Assembly: GCA_963669175.1 (NCBI GenBank)
Contig: OY769902.1
Location: 3,104,001-3,168,000 of the forward strand
Source: a bacterium
GTDB lineage: Bacteria > Electryoneota > Electryoneia > Electryoneales > Electryoneaceae
Reading direction: 5' to 3'
DNA: 64,000 nucleotides
Shown here: piece by piece, positions 12,912 to 54,486 of the stretch
Layout of the letters: each line of letters opens with the position of its first letter
Position numbering within the stretch: position 1 is the first letter of the stretch
Notes under the pieces: generated by a model
Told to the model about the DNA's origin: nothing
Database searches by the model: none
The model's input: only the letters and a program-made list of their open reading frames with translations
Made by a program: the position numbers and the translations under genes

Positions 12912-13062
12912 TCCCTGCATCATGTGAGTTACAAGTGTGATCTAACAATTGGTTTTCCTTGTTCTTGAGAGCGGAGACACGTCCTTTCGAGGTCTTGCGA
13001 ATCAGGGATCGAACGAATACCTTATGGCTCGCTTGACACACTGTGTTGAGCATTGGTTTTCC

Positions 13063-13137
13063 GGGGCAGTAGCTCAGTTTGGTTAGAGTGCCGGCCTGTC
13101 ACGCCGGAGGTCGCGAGTTCGAGCCTCGTCTGCCCCG
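13063..13137 (+). tRNA. tRNA-Asp(GTC)
   Basis: Acceptor stem GGGGCAG/CTGCCCC, anticodon GTC at 13098-13100, T-loop GTTCGAG. CCA is not encoded. Confidence 0.97.
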
Positions 13138-27531: not shown

Positions 27532-28974
27532 TCATGCAGCTTCGGCCTGTTTCTTCTTCCTGCTTTCCACGTCCAGCCATTTGCGTCCAAGGAACAAAGT
27601 GATCGGGCTGATCATGGTGCTTACGCCAACAATGATCCACATCAGCTCGGTATTTCGAGCGCCGGTTTCAGGACAAAGGTTGTACAATAATATGCCTGTT
27701 GCCGGTCCGGCTGCCACCTTGGCGAAGAACATCGGCGCCTTGGAGTAGGCCATATAGCTCGACTCCTTTCCTTCAGGCGCGATATTCGCCGTGTAGTCGT
27801 AGATCTTCGGTGAATAGATCGCTTCGCCGATGGACAGGACGACCTGGAAAAGTACGATCATCATAATCGATTCACCGAATCCCATGAAGAACACAGACCC
27901 GGCTGAGACCGCTGCGCCCAACATGATCACATTGTACCCCTTCATATTGCGGGTGATGGCGGTCATGATCGGGACCAGGAAGATGACAATGGCCGGGTTG
28001 ATAGAGTACAGTTTTCCGGTCCAGTTCTTCAGGCCGATCCTCTCCATATAAAGAGGATACAGCGAATGGTTATACTGGAAGATCATTTTTACCAGAACCA
28101 GCAGGAAAATGAAAGTGATGAATATCCAGAATGTCTTTTCGCTGGCAACTTCTTTCATTATCTGGAACGCTGACTTGTGTTCTTCCTGCTTTTCCGGTTT
28201 AGGTTTGGCTTCCTTCTTCTCTGTGGTCTTGTCATTCACCTCGTCTTCTTTGAATGCTTCCTTCGGAATCTTGTTACGGACAAAGAAGGTGACCAGCACA
28301 AGCGAGACTACGGTTGATAACACTGCTACCAGGAAGATGATCTGTGTGGGACGCACCACCAGGTCCATGCCCAGGAAAGAGAAGTTGTAGATAGTCGTAA
28401 AGGTTTCACGTAACCAGTCCAGGCTGAGTCCCGCCAGCAGGCTGCCTACATTCATCACGACATAATACCATGAGAAAGCGTATTTCTGAGCTTTTTTCGT
28501 GGAGAATAACTTCACCGCGGCGGCGATCAACGGGATCATGTAGGCAAAACCCACGGATAAAACAAACAATCCCGGATAGATGAGGTATGGCGACGTGGTA
28601 AAGGTGATCAGCAGACGTCCGACCAGGGCGATAACCAACCCGACCAGCAACGCTTTCTTGATCCCCAAGCTGTCCGCAATGAACCCGACAAACAGCATGA
28701 AGAAGCTCATCGAAGCGGAGAAGATGCCGAAAATGGTTCCGGCTGTGACATCATCAAGCCCCATGTCCTGCGTAAGGAAAGCCATCAGGACCAGCACGGA
28801 GGAGAAGTAACAGACACTCTCCAGCACCTTGATGGCAAAGGCGATCCAGATCTCACGCGGGCATGATCCCAGGTTAATCAGACCTTGCCAGTAATCAACA
28901 GCAGTTTCAATGGGGAAACGTAAAACAGTCGGCAGGTGAGAATACTTGCTTGCACCCTGTGCGGCTGCGGCCAT
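27532..28974 (-). CDS. MFS transporter (POT/peptide-transporter-like)
   Basis: About 12 TM segments, GFIADSLGIKK (MFS motif A), FSWYYVVMNVGS, SINP and GEAIYSP. Confidence 0.8.
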   Translation of the reverse strand: MAAAAQGASKYSHLPTVLRFPIETAVDYWQGLINLGSCPREIWIAFAIKVLESVCYFSSVLVLMAFLTQDMGLDDVTAGTIFGIFSASMSFFMLFVGFIADSLGIKKALLVGLVIALVGRLLITFTTSPYLIYPGLFVLSVGFAYMIPLIAAAVKLFSTKKAQKYAFSWYYVVMNVGSLLAGLSLDWLRETFTTIYNFSFLGMDLVVRPTQIIFLVAVLSTVVSLVLVTFFVRNKIPKEAFKEDEVNDKTTEKKEAKPKPEKQEEHKSAFQIMKEVASEKTFWIFITFIFLLVLVKMIFQYNHSLYPLYMERIGLKNWTGKLYSINPAIVIFLVPIMTAITRNMKGYNVIMLGAAVSAGSVFFMGFGESIMMIVLFQVVLSIGEAIYSPKIYDYTANIAPEGKESSYMAYSKAPMFFAKVAAGPATGILLYNLCPETGARNTELMWIIVGVSTMISPITLFLGRKWLDVESRKKKQAEAA

Positions 28975-29019
28975 CGGCAACACCTTTCGTTAAAATGGAG
29001 ATGGTCGAATCAGTCACCT

Positions 29020-29048
29020 AAGATGAATCGCAGGGCTTTCTTTGTCAA
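29020..29048 (-). promoter_or_regulatory. Putative sigma70 promoter of the MFS gene
   Basis: TTGACA-N17-CATCTT on the minus strand. Confidence 0.55.
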
Positions 29049-29202
29049 GAGAGGGGGGACTCGTGGGTCAGAAAATGAATTTGGTAGATTAGCCAGGCAT
29101 TCATACAGTATAATCGTTGGTGAAAATGATGTAAGTATTTAGTAATAATATGGTAGGGGGGGAGATGTTCAAAAAATGAGAAAAGAGTCCGGAGTCAGGA
29201 TC

Positions 29203-29231
29203 TTGCTTGTGACCTTCCGTTTTTTTATCTT
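29203..29231 (+). promoter_or_regulatory. Putative sigma70 promoter driving the long gdhA leader
   Basis: TTGCTT-N17-TATCTT. The same TATCTT -10 occurs in the promoter at 41357-41385. Predicted TSS is near 29238, at the first hairpin. Confidence 0.6.
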
Positions 29232-29237
29232 CCCCTT

Positions 29238-29880
29238 CGCCCAATTCCCGGGCGAAACGAAGAACAGCCACCGATAAAGTAGGATGGCCTTCCAGAGTTG
29301 CAATGTTTTCCCGTAGAAAACCACTTGCAAACCCAGCCCTTTAAGGCTTGTTCGAAACCCGAAAAAGCCTAAGGGATTCCCTTATCGACAGAGTGGGATA
29401 GCGTTAGCTCTGTCCGTTTCTCGTGATTCCATTAACAAAAGAATATATCAAGGATTAACGTCCTTTAAATCCTTGCGGCTGATATCAGGGAATCCCGTAT
29501 ATGGTGAACTGTATTCGGGTTATGTCAATGAGTTACGAGAGCACTGCGAGCACGAAGGCTATCTCTCGGAAGGAATAGACCTTATATTTATCTCCAGACG
29601 CCCAGCAGGGCATGAGAGATTGACAATTCGGAAGCAGGCGTGGCCGCCGGAAAATCGCTGTGAGCGTTTCCCGGTAAGCCGCGCCGCCGTAGTTAAGAGA
29701 GCCCCATGCGTTATTTTTCACAAATTGGGTTTCGGGGCTCGGTTACGGTTCCGGTGGCTTGCGGCACACGATGAAAAGCGGACGAGAAACATTGTGATAG
29801 GACCGTGTACCTGAAAAACACGGACCACTTGATAGATGCCTGGAAACAACATCTGACCGGCCGGGGAAAATCCTGCGGCC
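29238..29880 (+). ncRNA. Candidate ~650-nt structured RNA / 5' leader of gdhA
   Basis: More than 15 stems, with G-U pairs and multi-branch junctions, tile the region between the promoter and the RBS. No convincing ORF. Family not recognised. Confidence 0.55.
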
Positions 29881-29901
29881 ACCCAACGGAAGGAGTCATT
29901 C

Positions 29902-31263
29902 ATGGGCAGTTTCGTCAACGAAATCATGGAAATCGTGAAGGCCAAAGATCCGGCACAGCCCGAATTCCATCAAGCAGTCCAGGAAGTAGTCGAGTCTCTC
30001 GAACTCGTCATGGAGAAGCACTCGATTTATCGTCAGATGAAAGTCATGGAACGGATCATTGAGCCGGAACGTGCGTTCCAGTTCCGTGTACCGTGGGTTG
30101 ACGACGCTGGTGACATCCAGGTCAACCGTGGCTTCCGCGTTGAAATGAATAGCGCGATTGGTCCGTACAAGGGCGGTCTTCGTTTCCACCCGTCGGTCAA
30201 TCTCGGCATCCTCAAGTTCCTCGCCTTTGAACAGGTCTTCAAGAACAGCCTGACCACACTTCCGATGGGTGGTGGTAAGGGTGGTTCAGACTTTGATCCC
30301 AAGGGCAAGAGCGATATCGAAGTGATGCGTTTTACCCAGAGCTTCATGAGCGAACTGTTCCGTCACATCGGCCCGAACACCGACGTCCCGGCTGGCGACA
30401 TCGGCGTTGGCGGTCGTGAGATCGGTTTCATGTACGGCCAGTACAAAAAGCTCCGCAATGAGTTCACCGGTGTTCTGACCGGGAAGGGCCTGAACTGGGG
30501 CGGCAGCCTGATTCGTCCGGAAGCTACCGGTTACGGTGCAGTATACTTTGCAGCGAACATGCTGGCGACCCGCAACGAGACCCTGGAAGGCAAGACCTGC
30601 CTCGTCTCCGGCGCCGGTAACGTCTATCAGTACACCACAGAGAAGATTCTTGACCTCGGCGGCAAGGTTGTCACCGTTTCCGATAGCGGCGGCTACGTCT
30701 TTGACGGCGATGGCATCGACCGTGAAAAGCTGGCGTTCATCATGGAACTGAAGAACGTGAAGCGCGGCCGTATTTCCGAATACGCCGAAAAGTACCCGAG
30801 TGCTCAGTACTTCCCGGTGGATTCCGCTCTCGATCACAACCCGCTGTGGGATCACAAAGCCGACTGCGCGTTCCCGAGCGCAACCCAGAACGAAATCAAC
30901 GCGAAGGACGCTGCGAATCTGCTGAAGAACGGTGTCTACGTTGTTTCTGAAGGCGCGAACATGCCGACCGTCCCGGATGGTGTCGAGCAGTTCGTCAAGG
31001 CCGGTATCCTGTACGGCCCGGGCAAGGCTGCCAATGCTGGTGGTGTGGCAGTTTCCGGTCTGGAAATGAGCCAGAACAGCCTGCGCTTGAGCTGGACACG
31101 TGAAGAAGTCGACAACCGTCTCGCCGGCATCATGAAGAGCATCCATGACAACAGCGCCGCGGCCGCCGAAGAATATGGCACGCCCGGCAACTATGTCAAT
31201 GGCGCCAACATCGCCGGCTTCCTGAAGGTCGCCGACTCCATGCTGGATCAGGGTGTTGTCTGA
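29902..31263 (+). CDS. gdhA: Glutamate dehydrogenase (GdhA family)
   Basis: Motifs GPYKGGLRFHP, MGGGKGGSDFDP, DVPAGDIGVG, RPEATGYG, EGANMP and KAANAGGVAVSGLEM. Confidence 0.97.
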   Translation: MGSFVNEIMEIVKAKDPAQPEFHQAVQEVVESLELVMEKHSIYRQMKVMERIIEPERAFQFRVPWVDDAGDIQVNRGFRVEMNSAIGPYKGGLRFHPSVNLGILKFLAFEQVFKNSLTTLPMGGGKGGSDFDPKGKSDIEVMRFTQSFMSELFRHIGPNTDVPAGDIGVGGREIGFMYGQYKKLRNEFTGVLTGKGLNWGGSLIRPEATGYGAVYFAANMLATRNETLEGKTCLVSGAGNVYQYTTEKILDLGGKVVTVSDSGGYVFDGDGIDREKLAFIMELKNVKRGRISEYAEKYPSAQYFPVDSALDHNPLWDHKADCAFPSATQNEINAKDAANLLKNGVYVVSEGANMPTVPDGVEQFVKAGILYGPGKAANAGGVAVSGLEMSQNSLRLSWTREEVDNRLAGIMKSIHDNSAAAAEEYGTPGNYVNGANIAGFLKVADSMLDQGVV

Positions 31264-31478: not shown

Positions 31479-34466
31479 ATGCCAGGCGGTGATCAGAGCA
31501 GTAAGATGGAACTGAACTTCAGCGACATTGCCAGTCCGATTCGTGGATTCCAGAACCTGATGCGGAATCGTGTCCACGAGATCCTCCTCGTATCCAGCCT
31601 GTATGATTCTTTCATCCTGTCCCAGGATGGGCATTTGAATGTGATGATGATCGGTGAATTCACCGACATGAACCTGTATCACACTCCGAACCTGACCCGT
31701 GTTTCCAGCAGTGCGGAAGCCTTGGAAGCGGTTCATTACGGGCCACGTTTTAACCTGATTATTACCACCTCCAATATTGGTGAAATGCACGGGCTTGAAT
31801 TCGCACGGACCTTAAAAGCTGAGAACCGTCGTGTGCCTATAGTGCTACTGGCTTATGACCAGCAGGAAGTCAATGAGTTGATTGAACGGTATGATACGTC
31901 GGCTTTGGATCACATTTTCCTCTGGCAGGGTGATTTTACGGCTTTACTGGCTATCGTAAAACTGGCCGAGGATAAGAAGAATGTGGACCATGACACGCAT
32001 ATGATGGGGGTGCAGACAATTTTGCTGGTAGAGGACAATGTTAAGTTCTATTCTGCGTATCTGCCGGCAATTTATACGGAAGTAATGAAGCAGTCACAGA
32101 ACCTGATCAGCGAAGGTTTGAACCTGCCGGACAAGCTGCTGCGTATGCGTGCGCGTCCCAAGATTCTCCACGCTACCACGTACGAACAGGCATGGGAATA
32201 TTACACCCGTTATGAAGAGTATATGCTGGGTGTATTGACGGATATTGAATTCCTGCATGGCGGGAAAAAGGATTCGCGTGCAGGTGTTGAATTGGCGCAA
32301 CAGATGCGGAAACGTCGTCCCGAATTGCCTATTCTGATGCAGTCTTTTGATGGGTCAAACGCTGAACGAGCTCAAGAAGTCGGAGCGAATTTCGCAAAGA
32401 AGAATTCACCCACCTTGCTCAAGGAATTACGTGCATTCATGATGAGTAATTTCGGGTTTGGCGATTTCATCTTCAGGAAACAGGAAGGCGGGGAAGAGCT
32501 GGATCGTGCGGTTGATCTGCGATCCCTGCAAACGAAACTTCAAACTGTGCCGGCAGAGTGCCTGGTGTATCATGGGCAACGTGATCACTTTTCAACCTGG
32601 TTGAAGGCGCGGACTGAATTCGACCTGGCCCAGAAATTAAAACCGAGGAAGGTGGAAGATTACGGATCTCCGGAAGATCTTCGTCTGGAACTGATCGAGT
32701 CACTGGGGACATTTCGCCAGGAACGACGGCGTGCGCTGGTAACCGATTTCGATCCGATCAATTTTGAAGCCAGCGGAACCTTCGCAGTTATTGGCGAGGG
32801 ATCGCTTGGCGGGAAGGCGCGAGGATTGGCTTTCGCTAACAGGTTGATCGAGTTGAGTGGGCTTAGAGATGAATTCAGTGACATTGAGATCAGTGTTCCA
32901 CCTACAGTTGTGCTTAGTACCGATATCTTCGACAAGTTCATGGAAGCAAATGATTTGTGGGAGTTTGCGCTACACTGCGAGGATGATGAGAAGCTGACAG
33001 AGAGATTCTTGCAGGCAGAATTACCTGAAGCGATTGAAGCCAACCTGCGCTTCCTGACTGAGCTGATGGATTGCCCCCTGGCGGTACGTTCCTCAAGCTT
33101 GCTGGAAGATTCGCAATACCAGCCTTTTGCCGGTGTTTACGAGACGTTCATGCTGGCGAATGATCATCCAGATCCCACACGGCGAATAGACATTCTCGCT
33201 GAAGTAATCAAACGGATTTACTGTTCAACCTTCAAGACCGTATCAAAACGCTATATAAAGGCCACGGCATATCGTCTTGAAGAAGAGAAAATGGCGGTGA
33301 TGATCCAGAGCGTGGTGGGGGCGCCTCATGAGGATCGTTTTTACCCGGATGTTTCCGGTGTGGCCAAATCACATAATTTTTATCCTGTCAGGAAGATGAA
33401 ATCCAGTGATGGTGTGGCCATGGTGGCGCTGGGACTTGGGGCTACGGTTGTTGACGGCGGGAAAGTGATTCGTTTCTGTCCACGCTATCCGAAACATATG
33501 CACCAGTTTGGTACGGTTGATGATTACCTGGATAATACGCAACGTGAATTCTACGCGCTGAAATTGCACGATGAAGTCAAGGAAGGTATGTCGCGTATCA
33601 CGCCACAGTTGTTTGACCTCAGTGTAGCCGAAAAGGATAACACGCTTCATCGTGTTGCGTCGGTGTATTCGCCTGACAACGAGGCGGTATATGATGGGTT
33701 ATCGCGCAAGGGTGTGCGCCTTGTAACATTCGCTCCTATCCTGAAACATAACCTCTTTCCATTACCTGAAATTGTGCGATCCCTGCTTGAGCTTGGGGCG
33801 CACGGAATGGGGCGTGCGGTAGAACTGGAATTTGCGGTTAATCTCTCTACACCCCGTGGAAAACCCAAAGAATTCATGTTATTGCAGATGCGTCCGATGG
33901 TACTCCAGAACGAAATGGAAGAGTTGGACTTCGGCGCTGTCAGGGAAAAGAACCTGCTGTGTCGAAGCAAGAATGTGTTGGGGATGGGAAAGGTAGATAC
34001 GATCAGAGATATTGTCCTGGTGGACCGTGAGAAGTACGACCGTGCAGATTCCCGAAGAGTGGCAGACATTGTTGGCAAAATGAATGGCAAGTTGATGAGG
34101 GAAAACAGGCCGTATTTGCTGATAGGGGTGGGGCGTTGGGGATCATCCGACCCGTTCCTTGGCATTCCTGTTCACTGGGGGCAGATTGCCGGCGCCCGGG
34201 TGATTGTTGAGACCGGCTTCAAAGATATGAAGGTCACTCCCTCGCAGGGGGCGCATTTTTTCCATAACCTGACCGCGTTCAGAGTTGGCTATTTCACCGT
34301 GAATCCGGACAAAGGCGATGGCATGCTTGACTGGGAGTGGCTGAAGAATGCCCCCGTAGTTGAAGAGGACGATCCTGTCAGGCATCTCCGCTTCATTCAG
34401 CCACTGGAAATCAAGATGAACGGCAAGAATAACGCAGGTATTATCAGCAAGCCCCCAAAGAGGTAG
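31479..34466 (+). CDS. Receiver-like domains fused to a PEP/pyruvate-binding (PPDK_N/PpsA-like) ATP-grasp domain
   Basis: REC-like ILLVEDN...GVLTDIEF; kinase motifs GSLGGKARGL, LAVRSSSLLED..FAG and ELEFA..LQMRP; C-terminal PSQGAHFF. Confidence 0.85.
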   Translation: MPGGDQSSKMELNFSDIASPIRGFQNLMRNRVHEILLVSSLYDSFILSQDGHLNVMMIGEFTDMNLYHTPNLTRVSSSAEALEAVHYGPRFNLIITTSNIGEMHGLEFARTLKAENRRVPIVLLAYDQQEVNELIERYDTSALDHIFLWQGDFTALLAIVKLAEDKKNVDHDTHMMGVQTILLVEDNVKFYSAYLPAIYTEVMKQSQNLISEGLNLPDKLLRMRARPKILHATTYEQAWEYYTRYEEYMLGVLTDIEFLHGGKKDSRAGVELAQQMRKRRPELPILMQSFDGSNAERAQEVGANFAKKNSPTLLKELRAFMMSNFGFGDFIFRKQEGGEELDRAVDLRSLQTKLQTVPAECLVYHGQRDHFSTWLKARTEFDLAQKLKPRKVEDYGSPEDLRLELIESLGTFRQERRRALVTDFDPINFEASGTFAVIGEGSLGGKARGLAFANRLIELSGLRDEFSDIEISVPPTVVLSTDIFDKFMEANDLWEFALHCEDDEKLTERFLQAELPEAIEANLRFLTELMDCPLAVRSSSLLEDSQYQPFAGVYETFMLANDHPDPTRRIDILAEVIKRIYCSTFKTVSKRYIKATAYRLEEEKMAVMIQSVVGAPHEDRFYPDVSGVAKSHNFYPVRKMKSSDGVAMVALGLGATVVDGGKVIRFCPRYPKHMHQFGTVDDYLDNTQREFYALKLHDEVKEGMSRITPQLFDLSVAEKDNTLHRVASVYSPDNEAVYDGLSRKGVRLVTFAPILKHNLFPLPEIVRSLLELGAHGMGRAVELEFAVNLSTPRGKPKEFMLLQMRPMVLQNEMEELDFGAVREKNLLCRSKNVLGMGKVDTIRDIVLVDREKYDRADSRRVADIVGKMNGKLMRENRPYLLIGVGRWGSSDPFLGIPVHWGQIAGARVIVETGFKDMKVTPSQGAHFFHNLTAFRVGYFTVNPDKGDGMLDWEWLKNAPVVEEDDPVRHLRFIQPLEIKMNGKNNAGIISKPPKR

Positions 34467-53365: not shown

Positions 53366-53460
53366 ACTACTGAAGGATTATATCTCTAAGTAAAATAGAC
53401 CACCGCCGGGCAGCCGCCTACGCTTCGCTTCGGCGTGCTTCAAGCCGGCGGGGCCAAATA
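53366..53460 (+). repeat. ~95-bp palindromic repeat, inverted copy of 57595-57686
   Basis: ACTACTGAAGGA...CCGCCGG...GTGCTTCAAGCCGGCGGGGCCAA is shared with the reverse complement of 57595-57686. Confidence 0.8.
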
Positions 53461-53462
53461 AG

Positions 53463-53654
53463 TCAACTGGCTATTGCATCTTCAGCATACTGAAATACAG
53501 GGCAAAGCTGTGTGCATAATCCGCAATTCATACAATTGTCCTGGTTTATAGTCGGTACTCCGAAACCAACCTGAATGATTGCATTGGTTGGACAGGCATT
53601 TATCACCGGACATGGGTGATTATGTGGGCACATGTGTTTCAGGACGTGAATCAT
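53463..53654 (-). CDS. Small 4Fe-4S ferredoxin-like protein
   Basis: CPHNHPCP...CPTNAI...CMNCGLCTQLCP, with a GGAGG RBS upstream. Confidence 0.85.
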   Translation of the reverse strand: MIHVLKHMCPHNHPCPVINACPTNAIIQVGFGVPTINQDNCMNCGLCTQLCPVFQYAEDAIAS

Positions 53655-53884
53655 GGTATGGTATCCTCCCGTGAGTTTAACCGTTTTCAAGCGTTGGATG
53701 CGAGAACAGGCGGTTCGATGCTTTTGGGAGGAACGGGGAGGCAAAGTAAGGATGAACAAGAGTTTGGCTAATGAAACTTCTTTCGAGTTTAACCGGTCAT
53801 TTTTATCTGCCAGGTTTTGGTATGTTAGTGGTCTGTCCGTTTTAGCCTGCTTCAGCAGGCTCTTCTTAGCACCCGGCTTTAGCC

Positions 53885-54280
53885 CTGTCTCTTACCCACA
53901 TCTTCTGAAAGCTGTATCAGTAAAAGAGTTGTGGACATAGCATTTTTAGAATCCCGGCGGGATTCCCTATTTTAGCATAGTGTACAGGCCGTCTGTTTGG
54001 CCTGTACACTATGTCAGGTATTCTAACGAATAATCAACCCTGGAAGGGTTGCATAATACGCGATTCATATTAGTACGTTCAATAAATACAGGAAATAACG
54101 CATTTTATATTCTATACAAACCAATTGGGTGTAAATTATACGTTATGCAACCCTTCCAGGGTTGAGATAAGGTTTGATCTTTTTCGTAGGGTAGACGCTA
54201 AACAGACAGCGTCAACCCTACGCTAAAATATACCACCCCCTCTGGGGTGGCAGAAACACGAAGATGTGAGCAAGAGACAG
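53885..54280. mobile_element. 396-bp non-autonomous IS4-family (IS50/Tn5-like) element
   Basis: 19-bp inverted ends CTGTCTCTTACCCACATCT (53885-903) and AGATGTGAGCAAGAGACAG (54262-80). GGCTTTAGCC is duplicated at 53875-84 and 54281-90. Confidence 0.85.
53950..54251. repeat. Inner three-hairpin palindromic element carried within the IS50-like MITE
   Basis: Inverted pairs TATTTTAGC/GCTAAAATA, CCGTCTGTTTGG/CTAAACAGACAG and CAACCCTGGAAGGGTTGCATAA/TTATGCAACCCTTCCAGGGTTG. Same family as 24325-24571. Confidence 0.8.
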
Positions 54281-54486
54281 GGCTTTAGCCGGGGTGAATA
54301 GAACGTGTAATAATCAGGAGCGCGCTTTAGCGTGCTTTCCAGTACGTAAACTCTGCGTTGGTAAGCACCCTGAAGGGCGCTCAGTATTTTGTGGTATCTT
54401 CACACCTGGCTAAAGCCAGGTGCTAAGAGGGAGCAGGCTAAAGCCTGCTAAAATAATAGAAATAAAGTAAAGATGACAAATGATTT

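Follow-up and report, generated by a model that had tools for sequence, protein, structure and literature searches.

The window, a 64,000-nt stretch from the single-contig, 5.45-Mb genome of a bacterium of the family Electryoneaceae (G000), carries the glutamate dehydrogenase gene gdhA and, divergent from it, a gene for a transporter of the major facilitator superfamily (MFS). In the spacer between both genes, a first-pass annotation had placed one structured, multi-domain RNA of about 650 nt that would form the gdhA leader. The interval concerned, 29203-29902, makes up the gdhA-proximal three quarters of the divergent spacer. At about an even chance, we favor the reading that it is part of an ordinary divergent control region, unusually long and specific to the lineage, whose 5' untranslated region (UTR) is moderately structured, and not one large RNA. 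We read it so because conservation is confined to the 3' part, most of the proposed helices are lost in a congener, a TATATT box recurs in the family, the orientation of a repeated box differs between genomes, and the folding z-score is ordinary.

Bacterial nitrogen-assimilation genes can have long 5' UTRs or divergent control regions, in which tandem promoters and operator boxes precede gdhA or glnA. The gdhA spacer, known here from sequence alone, resembles such regions in its divergent genes, sigma-70-like -10 boxes, paired near-palindromic boxes and a hairpin beside the Shine-Dalgarno sequence. Its 918-927 nt, depending on the start of the MFS gene, are about three times the length of the ~300-nt spacer in two other family genomes (L093 and L096) that have the same divergent gene, read from their sequence as an MFS-like frame upstream of gdhA. 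For the window's MFS gene, the ATG at 28974 is a more probable start than the 28983 end, because the N-terminus aligns with the orthologue of the congener G001 from the second ATG. The spacer and its flanks contain the following features:

27532-28983, minus strand: MFS transporter gene (Pfam MFS_1, E 8.1e-39), transcribed away from gdhA.
29057-29163, no strand assigned: AT-rich variable segment with candidate MFS promoters (sigma-70-like matches on the minus strand).
29203-29231, plus strand: candidate promoter P1, TTGCTT-N17-TATCTT (TTGCTT 29203-29208, TATCTT 29226-29231).
29236-29475, plus strand: lineage-specific cluster of five perfect local hairpins, H1 (29236-56), H2 (29298-330), H3 (29337-75), H5 (29387-414) and H6 (29449-75).
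29371-29386, minus strand: box 1, an inverted copy of the 16-nt box ATMAGGGAATCCCKTA, assigned from the sequence.
29484-29500, plus strand: box 2, ATCAGGGAATCCCGTAT, at the 5' edge of the conserved region; 17/17 identical in G001.
29535-29573, plus strand: conserved block with the hairpin CGAGAG/CTCTCG and the family box TCTCTCGGAAGG (29562-29573); runs of 15/15 and 12/12 identical with G001.
29583-29588, plus strand: P2, a TATATT box and probable gdhA -10 element at -319 from the ATG; identical in G001, also at -319.
29595-29901, plus strand: putative gdhA 5' UTR of about 307 nt, as predicted from P2.
29637-29685, plus strand: GC-rich hairpin H9 (GGCGUGGC/GCCGCGCC), whose inner stem is CCGG/CCGG and whose tip is variable; 8/8 basal pairs identical in G001.
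29705-29723, plus strand: apparently unpaired box CATGCGTTATTTTTCACAA; 18/19 identical in G001.
29800-29842, plus strand: hairpin H12 (29800-29826) with conserved base GGNCCG/CGGACC and variable tip, followed by the conserved box CACTTGATAGATGCCTG, as seen by comparison with G001.
29859-29880, plus strand: hairpin H14, which ends 8 nt before the Shine-Dalgarno sequence.
29888-29904, plus strand: Shine-Dalgarno sequence GGAAGGAG and gdhA ATG; block 88% identical to G001.
29902-31263, plus strand: gdhA (Pfam ELFV_dehydrog, E 5.7e-82), ATG at 29902.

We compared the spacer with a phylum set of 79 species genomes, 78 besides the window's own. Spacer-like DNA was found in one of 40 relatives and in one of the 78 other phylum genomes; this is the congener G001, the sole genome that gave orthologous spacer sequence. 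Its locus is syntenic, with the MFS gene, an 821-nt spacer and gdhA. As a neutral yardstick between window and G001 we used the 56% identity at gdhA four-fold sites (34/61). Similarity is confined to 29484-29726 (70%) and 29821-29901 (76%). Identity amounts to 70-88% in the blocks 29482-29627, 29628-29653, 29666-29726, 29810-29842 and 29888-29904, which include exact runs of 17, 15 and 14 nt. Around P1 (29164-29239), identity stays at a neutral 56-58% save for one 10-nt block at 80%, and at 29247-29471 it amounts to 31-56%, i.e. the sequences are effectively unaligned save for 33 nt at the first GGGAWTCCC box (29352-29384), which reach 73%. Conservation at orthologous loci hence holds for the gdhA-proximal part, which lies above neutral in G001, but not for the 5' half (29236-29480), which does not align. 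Outside the genus, one box and a few short blocks recur upstream of gdhA in G010 of genus g10, and no similarity to the spacer was found at 80 gdhA loci from other lineages. Metagenome scans gave no match to a 22-base spacer pattern and 12 matches to a degenerate gdhA-start pattern, none of which (0/12) encodes glutamate dehydrogenase. Variation on the MFS side is also seen at short evolutionary distance. In a marine metagenome contig that covers the spacer (X3, ~95% identical) the AT-rich 105-nt stretch at 29057-29163 is swapped for 104 unrelated letters, while its flanks stay 95-97% identical; on the minus strand of this segment the consensus promoter scan reports promoter-like TTGAAC-16-TATTAT and CTTACA-17-TATACT.

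The spacer belongs to no known RNA family that we could find. The first-pass annotation had recognised none, and in agreement with this Rfam 15 gave zero matches in the spacer at gathering thresholds; across the whole window, the only match at these thresholds is a tRNA at 13063-13137. Allowing E <= 10 within 28900-30000 yields three weak matches, scoring 17.1, 16.8 and 15 bits where the thresholds are 96, 70 and 35, and no family there reaches half its gathering score. Like the glutamine riboswitch (glnA RNA) and other cis-regulatory leaders in Rfam, the gdhA spacer lies upstream of a nitrogen-assimilation gene and features conserved hairpins; unlike them, the element is far longer and comes without a covariation-supported core. 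Among the papers listed by a full-text literature search, the surveys of candidate structured RNAs in bacteria mention neither gdhA nor 'glutamate dehydrogenase', supplementary files aside.

Nor is the spacer a dispersed repeat. The whole spacer matches itself alone in the genome, and 12 sub-segments, including each hairpin, give only 12-17-nt chance matches elsewhere. Repeats resembling repetitive extragenic palindromic (REP) elements or miniature inverted-repeat transposable elements (MITEs), e.g. a ~615-nt repeat at 53840-54455, are like the gdhA spacer in that they place perfect short palindromes in non-coding DNA, and they have the 11-mer AGGGAATCCCG in common with it; they differ in that every spacer segment is unique in the genome. 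Compared directly with the ~615-nt repeat, the spacer shows no similarity beyond 9-14-nt chance matches. We also considered a genome-wide 2-3-fold excess of GGGAATCCC as a regulon signal and rejected it, as the excess stems from this unrelated repeat.

All 14 helices listed in the first-pass annotation are present and do tile the interval; in the window, 111 of their 112 pairs are canonical or G-U. In the 5' cluster (29236-29475) every pair forms, and 29200-29399 reaches a plus-strand z of -3.7. Over the 664-nt stretch, the plus strand folds with -229.3 kcal/mol (z -2.96) and the minus strand with -226.7 kcal/mol (z -3.40), in both cases with 0/20 dinucleotide shuffles as stable. Sliding windows of 200 nt reach z <= -2.5 in 4/10 cases on the plus and 3/10 on the minus strand. 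The fold signal is thus about equal on both strands and gives no pointer to a plus-strand RNA. Among random 200-nt windows of the genome (n=118, mean -0.14), 3.4% have z <= -2.5. A more telling background was drawn from stretches of at least 300 nt without long open reading frames (ORFs) of the same genome, where 28% of 109 windows have z <= -2.5 and 14% z <= -3.5 (mean -1.37, standard deviation (sd) 1.9). The folding of the interval is better than dinucleotide shuffles, yet ordinary against this ORF-free DNA. The hairpins are real and non-random, yet such folding is normal for non-coding DNA of this genome. Compared with dinucleotide shuffles, its stretches without long ORFs are more stable by 1.4 sd on average, and differences of 1-4 sd are routine, so that z-scores of folding, if used alone, over-call structured RNA here. 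A crude stop-to-stop filter finds 671 such stretches of at least 300 nt in the whole genome, 112 of them of at least 800 nt.

If the interval were one RNA, its helices should be looked for in G001. The orthologous structure comparison comprises two informative sequences, window and G001, and gave the following pair counts:

H1: G001 keeps 3/4 ungapped pairs.
H2: G001 keeps 6/12 pairs.
H3: G001 keeps 3/8 ungapped pairs.
H4 (box helix, 29376/29493): G001 keeps 6/7 pairs.
H5: G001 keeps 5/7 pairs.
H6: G001 keeps 3/4 ungapped pairs.
H7 (29523/29625): G001 keeps 4/7 pairs.
H8 (29629/29753): G001 keeps 1/5 pairs.
H9 (29637/29685): G001 keeps 8/8 pairs.
H10 (29687/29748): G001 keeps 2/7 pairs.
H11 (29699/29740): G001 keeps 1/7 pairs.
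H12 (29800/29826): G001 keeps 7/9 pairs.
H13: G001 keeps 3/5 pairs.
H14 (29859-29880): G001 keeps 3/8 pairs by alignment; 8/8 form in the window.

Over all 14 helices G001 keeps 55/98 ungapped pairs, 21 of which lie in H9, H12 and H4. The eleven other helices retain 34/74 ungapped pairs (46%, with 14 more gapped), where chance would give ~38%; the 5' cluster H1-H3, H5 and H6 keeps 20/35, and 14 more are gapped. The multi-domain architecture is not borne out at the helices that should close its junctions (4/7, 1/5, and 3/14 for H10 and H11 together). H9 is the only strongly conserved structure; its 14-mer is unique in the genome and its tip is 12 nt shorter in G001. In a structure-conservation scan of the pairwise alignment, with a column-shuffled alignment as control and the window starting at 29862 excluded, windows containing H9 have a structure conservation index (SCI) of 0.55-0.62 and z of -2.9 to -5.8, whereas those without H9 show SCI 0.08-0.47 and mostly non-significant z. 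Possible H9 covariation from genus g10 was not counted, as two equally plausible alignments give four two-sided pair changes or none (the G010 stem matches the window's tip stem). In H12, an A-A mismatch of the window is U-A in G001, where the tip is 8 nt longer. At the position of H14, G001 has a different GC hairpin, GGCC-CGGC/GCCG-GGCC (read by eye), and neither this nor H14 itself pairs with the Shine-Dalgarno sequence in the listed helices.

Taken as a whole, a single ~650-nt multi-domain RNA transcribed from P1 (transcription start site (TSS) near 29238), riboswitch-like or otherwise functional, is very improbable. The nearly complete set of pairs in the window, the z of -2.96 for the whole stretch, a same-spaced P1 counterpart in G001 and a single-copy region without Rfam family would fit it. 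However, its 5' 250 nt are unconserved, and the 5' domains are missing from G001 both in sequence and in folding signal: the 5' 500 nt of the G001 spacer have z of 0 to +1, and only the last 370 nt reach -3.0 to -3.5 (plus strand). Furthermore, the closing helices are largely lost there, folding is no weaker on the minus strand than on the plus strand, the P1 block is conserved at neutral level only, and a promoter-like box conserved in the family, at -319, falls into the middle of the proposed RNA.

The helix 29373/29487, in which the first-pass annotation had seen the hint of a switch, turned out to be two copies of the near-palindromic 16-nt box ATMAGGGAATCCCKTA. They are inverted in the window; in G001 the box occurs in direct orientation, about 120 nt upstream of box 2. 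Because of this change in orientation, the copies suit protein-binding boxes better than a conserved RNA helix. The 13-mer of box 2 has just 2 occurrences in the genome, and a near-copy of box 2, ATCAGGGAATACCCTATA, lies upstream of gdhA in G010. Boxes akin to TCTCTCGGAAGG, i.e. CCCTCGGAG or CTCTCTTGGGG, precede TATATT in 6 other family loci.

The TATATT box points to a promoter within the proposed RNA. P2 matches 5/6 positions of TATAAT, and among the 13 gdhA-bearing family genomes outside the window's genus, TATATT occurs within 500 nt upstream of gdhA in 9/13 loci, at -85 to -278. CCCTCGGAG precedes it in the five loci of genera g11 and g5, and CTCTCTTGGGG in L085 (g6), the latter being close to CTCTTGGGGGG of G001 and to TCTCTCGGAAGG of the window; in 3/4 sequences read by eye, a hexamer that matches 4/6 of TTGACA lies 17 nt upstream. 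Since TATATT with a preceding TCTCTCGG box recurs upstream of gdhA in other family genera, we infer that it is the gdhA -10 element, with a TSS near 29595 and a leader of about 307 nt. With TATATT at 85-278 nt from the ATG elsewhere in the family, the window's genus would thus have the longest leader. Sigma-70 logic applies in this genome, as the promoters of its rRNA operon are classical, of TTGACA-N17/18-TATCAT type. Concerning P1, the letters named by the first-pass annotation are present; the surrounding block, however, shows only neutral conservation, and P1 is below the threshold of the consensus promoter scan.

In the control region that we favor, gdhA would be transcribed mainly from the promoter with the -10 box TATATT at 29583-29588, giving a 5' UTR of about 310 nt. 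This UTR would carry the strongly conserved GC-rich stem-loop 29637-29685, two conserved unpaired boxes and two more hairpins whose bases are conserved and whose tips vary, 29800-29826 and, next to the Shine-Dalgarno sequence, 29859-80. Such elements probably govern the stability or translation of the mRNA or serve as protein-binding sites. Further upstream, beyond the promoter, the two ATMAGGGAATCCCKTA boxes and the TCTCTCGG box would be candidate operator sites for regulators that plausibly respond to nitrogen status. The five perfect hairpins at 29236-29475 would then be lineage-specific palindromes in spacer DNA that are transcribed only if the weak P1 fires.

Several observations weigh against this reading. 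P2 and the TSS were deduced from motif conservation; the -35 region of P2 is poor in the window (ATCTCT/TCTCTC), P2 is absent from the consensus-scan report, and 4/13 family loci (L086, L087, L089 and L091) have no TATATT within 500 nt. The G001 counterpart of P1, TTGCGC-N17-TATTTT, has the same spacing, and P1 could yield the long transcript. The conserved blocks begin ~100 nt upstream of P2, which an RNA starting at or before 29484 explains equally well. The putative operator role of the boxes is read from their sequence, and they match no regulator motif tried. Some slight signs of plus-strand RNA pairing are seen as well: in two short stems, all five changes that affect one side only leave G-U pairs on the plus strand, a count that is biased because RNAalifold chose the structure, and H9 holds a U-G pair, which on the opposite strand would read C-A. 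In the CGAGAG/CTCTCG stem, two G001 changes yield U-G and G-U on the plus strand. Finally, all three indels among the differences listed for the X3 strain (~95% identical) fall on unpaired positions of H3 and H6; with ~70% of positions unpaired, the chance probability of this pattern is about 0.34.

Possible, though rather unlikely, is hence a shorter structured cis-regulatory leader, about 310-420 nt long (from 29484 or 29595 up to 29901), which would be genus-specific, respond to a metabolite or protein and control gdhA via the hairpins near the Shine-Dalgarno sequence. Its region is conserved above neutral and folds in excess in both congeners: the 316-nt leader has z -2.13 in the window (2/100 shuffles as good) and -2.89 in G001 (0/100), in addition to the -3.0 to -3.5 of the last 370 nt in G001. 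H9 is conserved with a variable tip, the H12 mismatch is repaired in G001, the one-sided changes still allow G-U pairing on the plus strand, and other genera own a conserved gdhA leader hairpin, so control by leader RNA may be a family habit. But just two sequences are informative, and apart from H9 the structural conservation is low and mostly non-significant. The minimum free energy folds of the two leaders differ and agree on little beyond H9, the H12 base and the hairpin before the Shine-Dalgarno sequence. Moreover, the z-scores are typical of this genome's ORF-free DNA, and the terminator scan found no terminator-like site in 29480-29901 that could serve as an expression platform.

Independent small RNAs on either strand, for example one from P1 ending near 29415-29480 or an antisense RNA across 29575-29774, seem quite improbable. 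The strongest local z, -4.17, does lie on the minus strand at 29575-29774, a weak plus-strand terminator-like site occurs at 29396-29415, and conserved boxes such as 29705-23 have no assigned role. However, the terminator scan found 2 terminator-like sites versus 1.4 expected from shuffles, the P1-proximal region is unconserved, and by its sequence H9 is not followed by a U-tract on either strand.

A coding origin of the conserved block, as remnant or live small minus-strand gene ending at a TGA inside box 2, is scarcely credible. Minus-strand translations of window and G001 look alike by eye over ~45 residues, with several third-position differences. But in each of the six frames substitutions are spread evenly over the codon positions (13/12/16 in 29482-29627), and the candidate frame has 8 synonymous versus 21 non-synonymous codons, an in-frame stop in each genome and, in G001, also a frameshift. 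The frame gave no Pfam and no NCBIfam match and no homologue outside G001 in 15 family genomes (best other match E 0.23); in G010, read by eye, a stop precedes the conserved box in that frame. A small minus-strand gene or pseudogene across 29484-29742 was thus ruled out by the codon-position test, the stops, and the family and genome searches.

A candidate leader hairpin is seen elsewhere in the family. Genera g11 (4/4 genomes) and g5 (1/1) have a common ~120-nt gdhA leader with a ~55-nt hairpin, at these positions upstream of gdhA:

L090: 2860-2989, minus strand.
L092: 1371-1500.
L093: 1371-1500.
L094: 2860-2989, minus strand.
L096: 1371-1500.

This hairpin has an outer CCCGGG/CCCGGG stem, an inner 8-bp stem and the invariant loop CATGGCC..TCAGCG; for the five sequences RNAalifold predicts 26 pairs, 8 of which are kept via changes on both sides. 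It has no Rfam match and occurs once per genome, always upstream of gdhA. As in the window, it lies between a TATATT box and the gdhA Shine-Dalgarno sequence, and the 5' arm of the model built from the five sequences (R1) starts with GGGAGCCGGCGTG, resembling GGAAGCAGGCGTG at 29630-29642 of the window. Unlike the window's leader of about 310 nt, the sister-genus leader has about 120 nt, and its conserved loop CATGGCCNNTCAGCG is absent from the window spacer. We rejected homology of both leaders, as R1 recovers its five training sequences and no others, neither among 16 loci (E <= 10), where the window and G001 give no match, nor among 79 genomes (E <= 0.01). A search for the loop pattern with 1 mismatch gave mostly chance matches; in the window's genome, the exact match is part of a 924-codon frame.

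Some further observations concern neighboring features. Downstream of gdhA, 31479-34466 encodes a 995-aa protein with a response-regulator receiver domain (E 2e-9) and PPDK_N, the pyruvate phosphate dikinase ATP-binding domain (E 1.6e-35). The ~615-nt repeat at 53840-54455 is without long ORFs and has about 45-50 genome copies with 88-99% identity; within ORF-free stretches, a 33-nt string with a GAATCCC/GGGATTC hairpin is identical in 40 copies, and besides one 15.8-bit chance match it has no Rfam match at E <= 1. By its coverage profile, a second short repeat of about 80-100 nt at ~53390-53470 has ~74 genome copies. Upstream of the tRNA gene 13063-13137, the 11-mer ATTGGTTTTCC occurs twice, at 12938-12948 and at 13052-13062, where it abuts the tRNA 5' end, and TTGACA is found at 13033-13038.

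As first described, the interval would have represented a new class of large structured RNAs linked to glutamate metabolism, which the evidence does not support. We may speculate that the family controls gdhA via fast-evolving, lineage-specific structured leaders, in the window's genus an RNA of about 310-420 nt (29484/29595-29901) around the 29637-29685 hairpin and two unpaired boxes, in sister genera an unrelated ~55-nt hairpin. We consider this unlikely; if true, such leaders would be undescribed elements of nitrogen assimilation that respond to a ligand or a protein. What remains under the control-region reading is a long regulatory spacer that is specific to the genus and has a few conserved boxes and a single conserved hairpin, which is unsurprising, and which may be of use for annotating the gdhA promoter and 5' UTR in a little-studied phylum.

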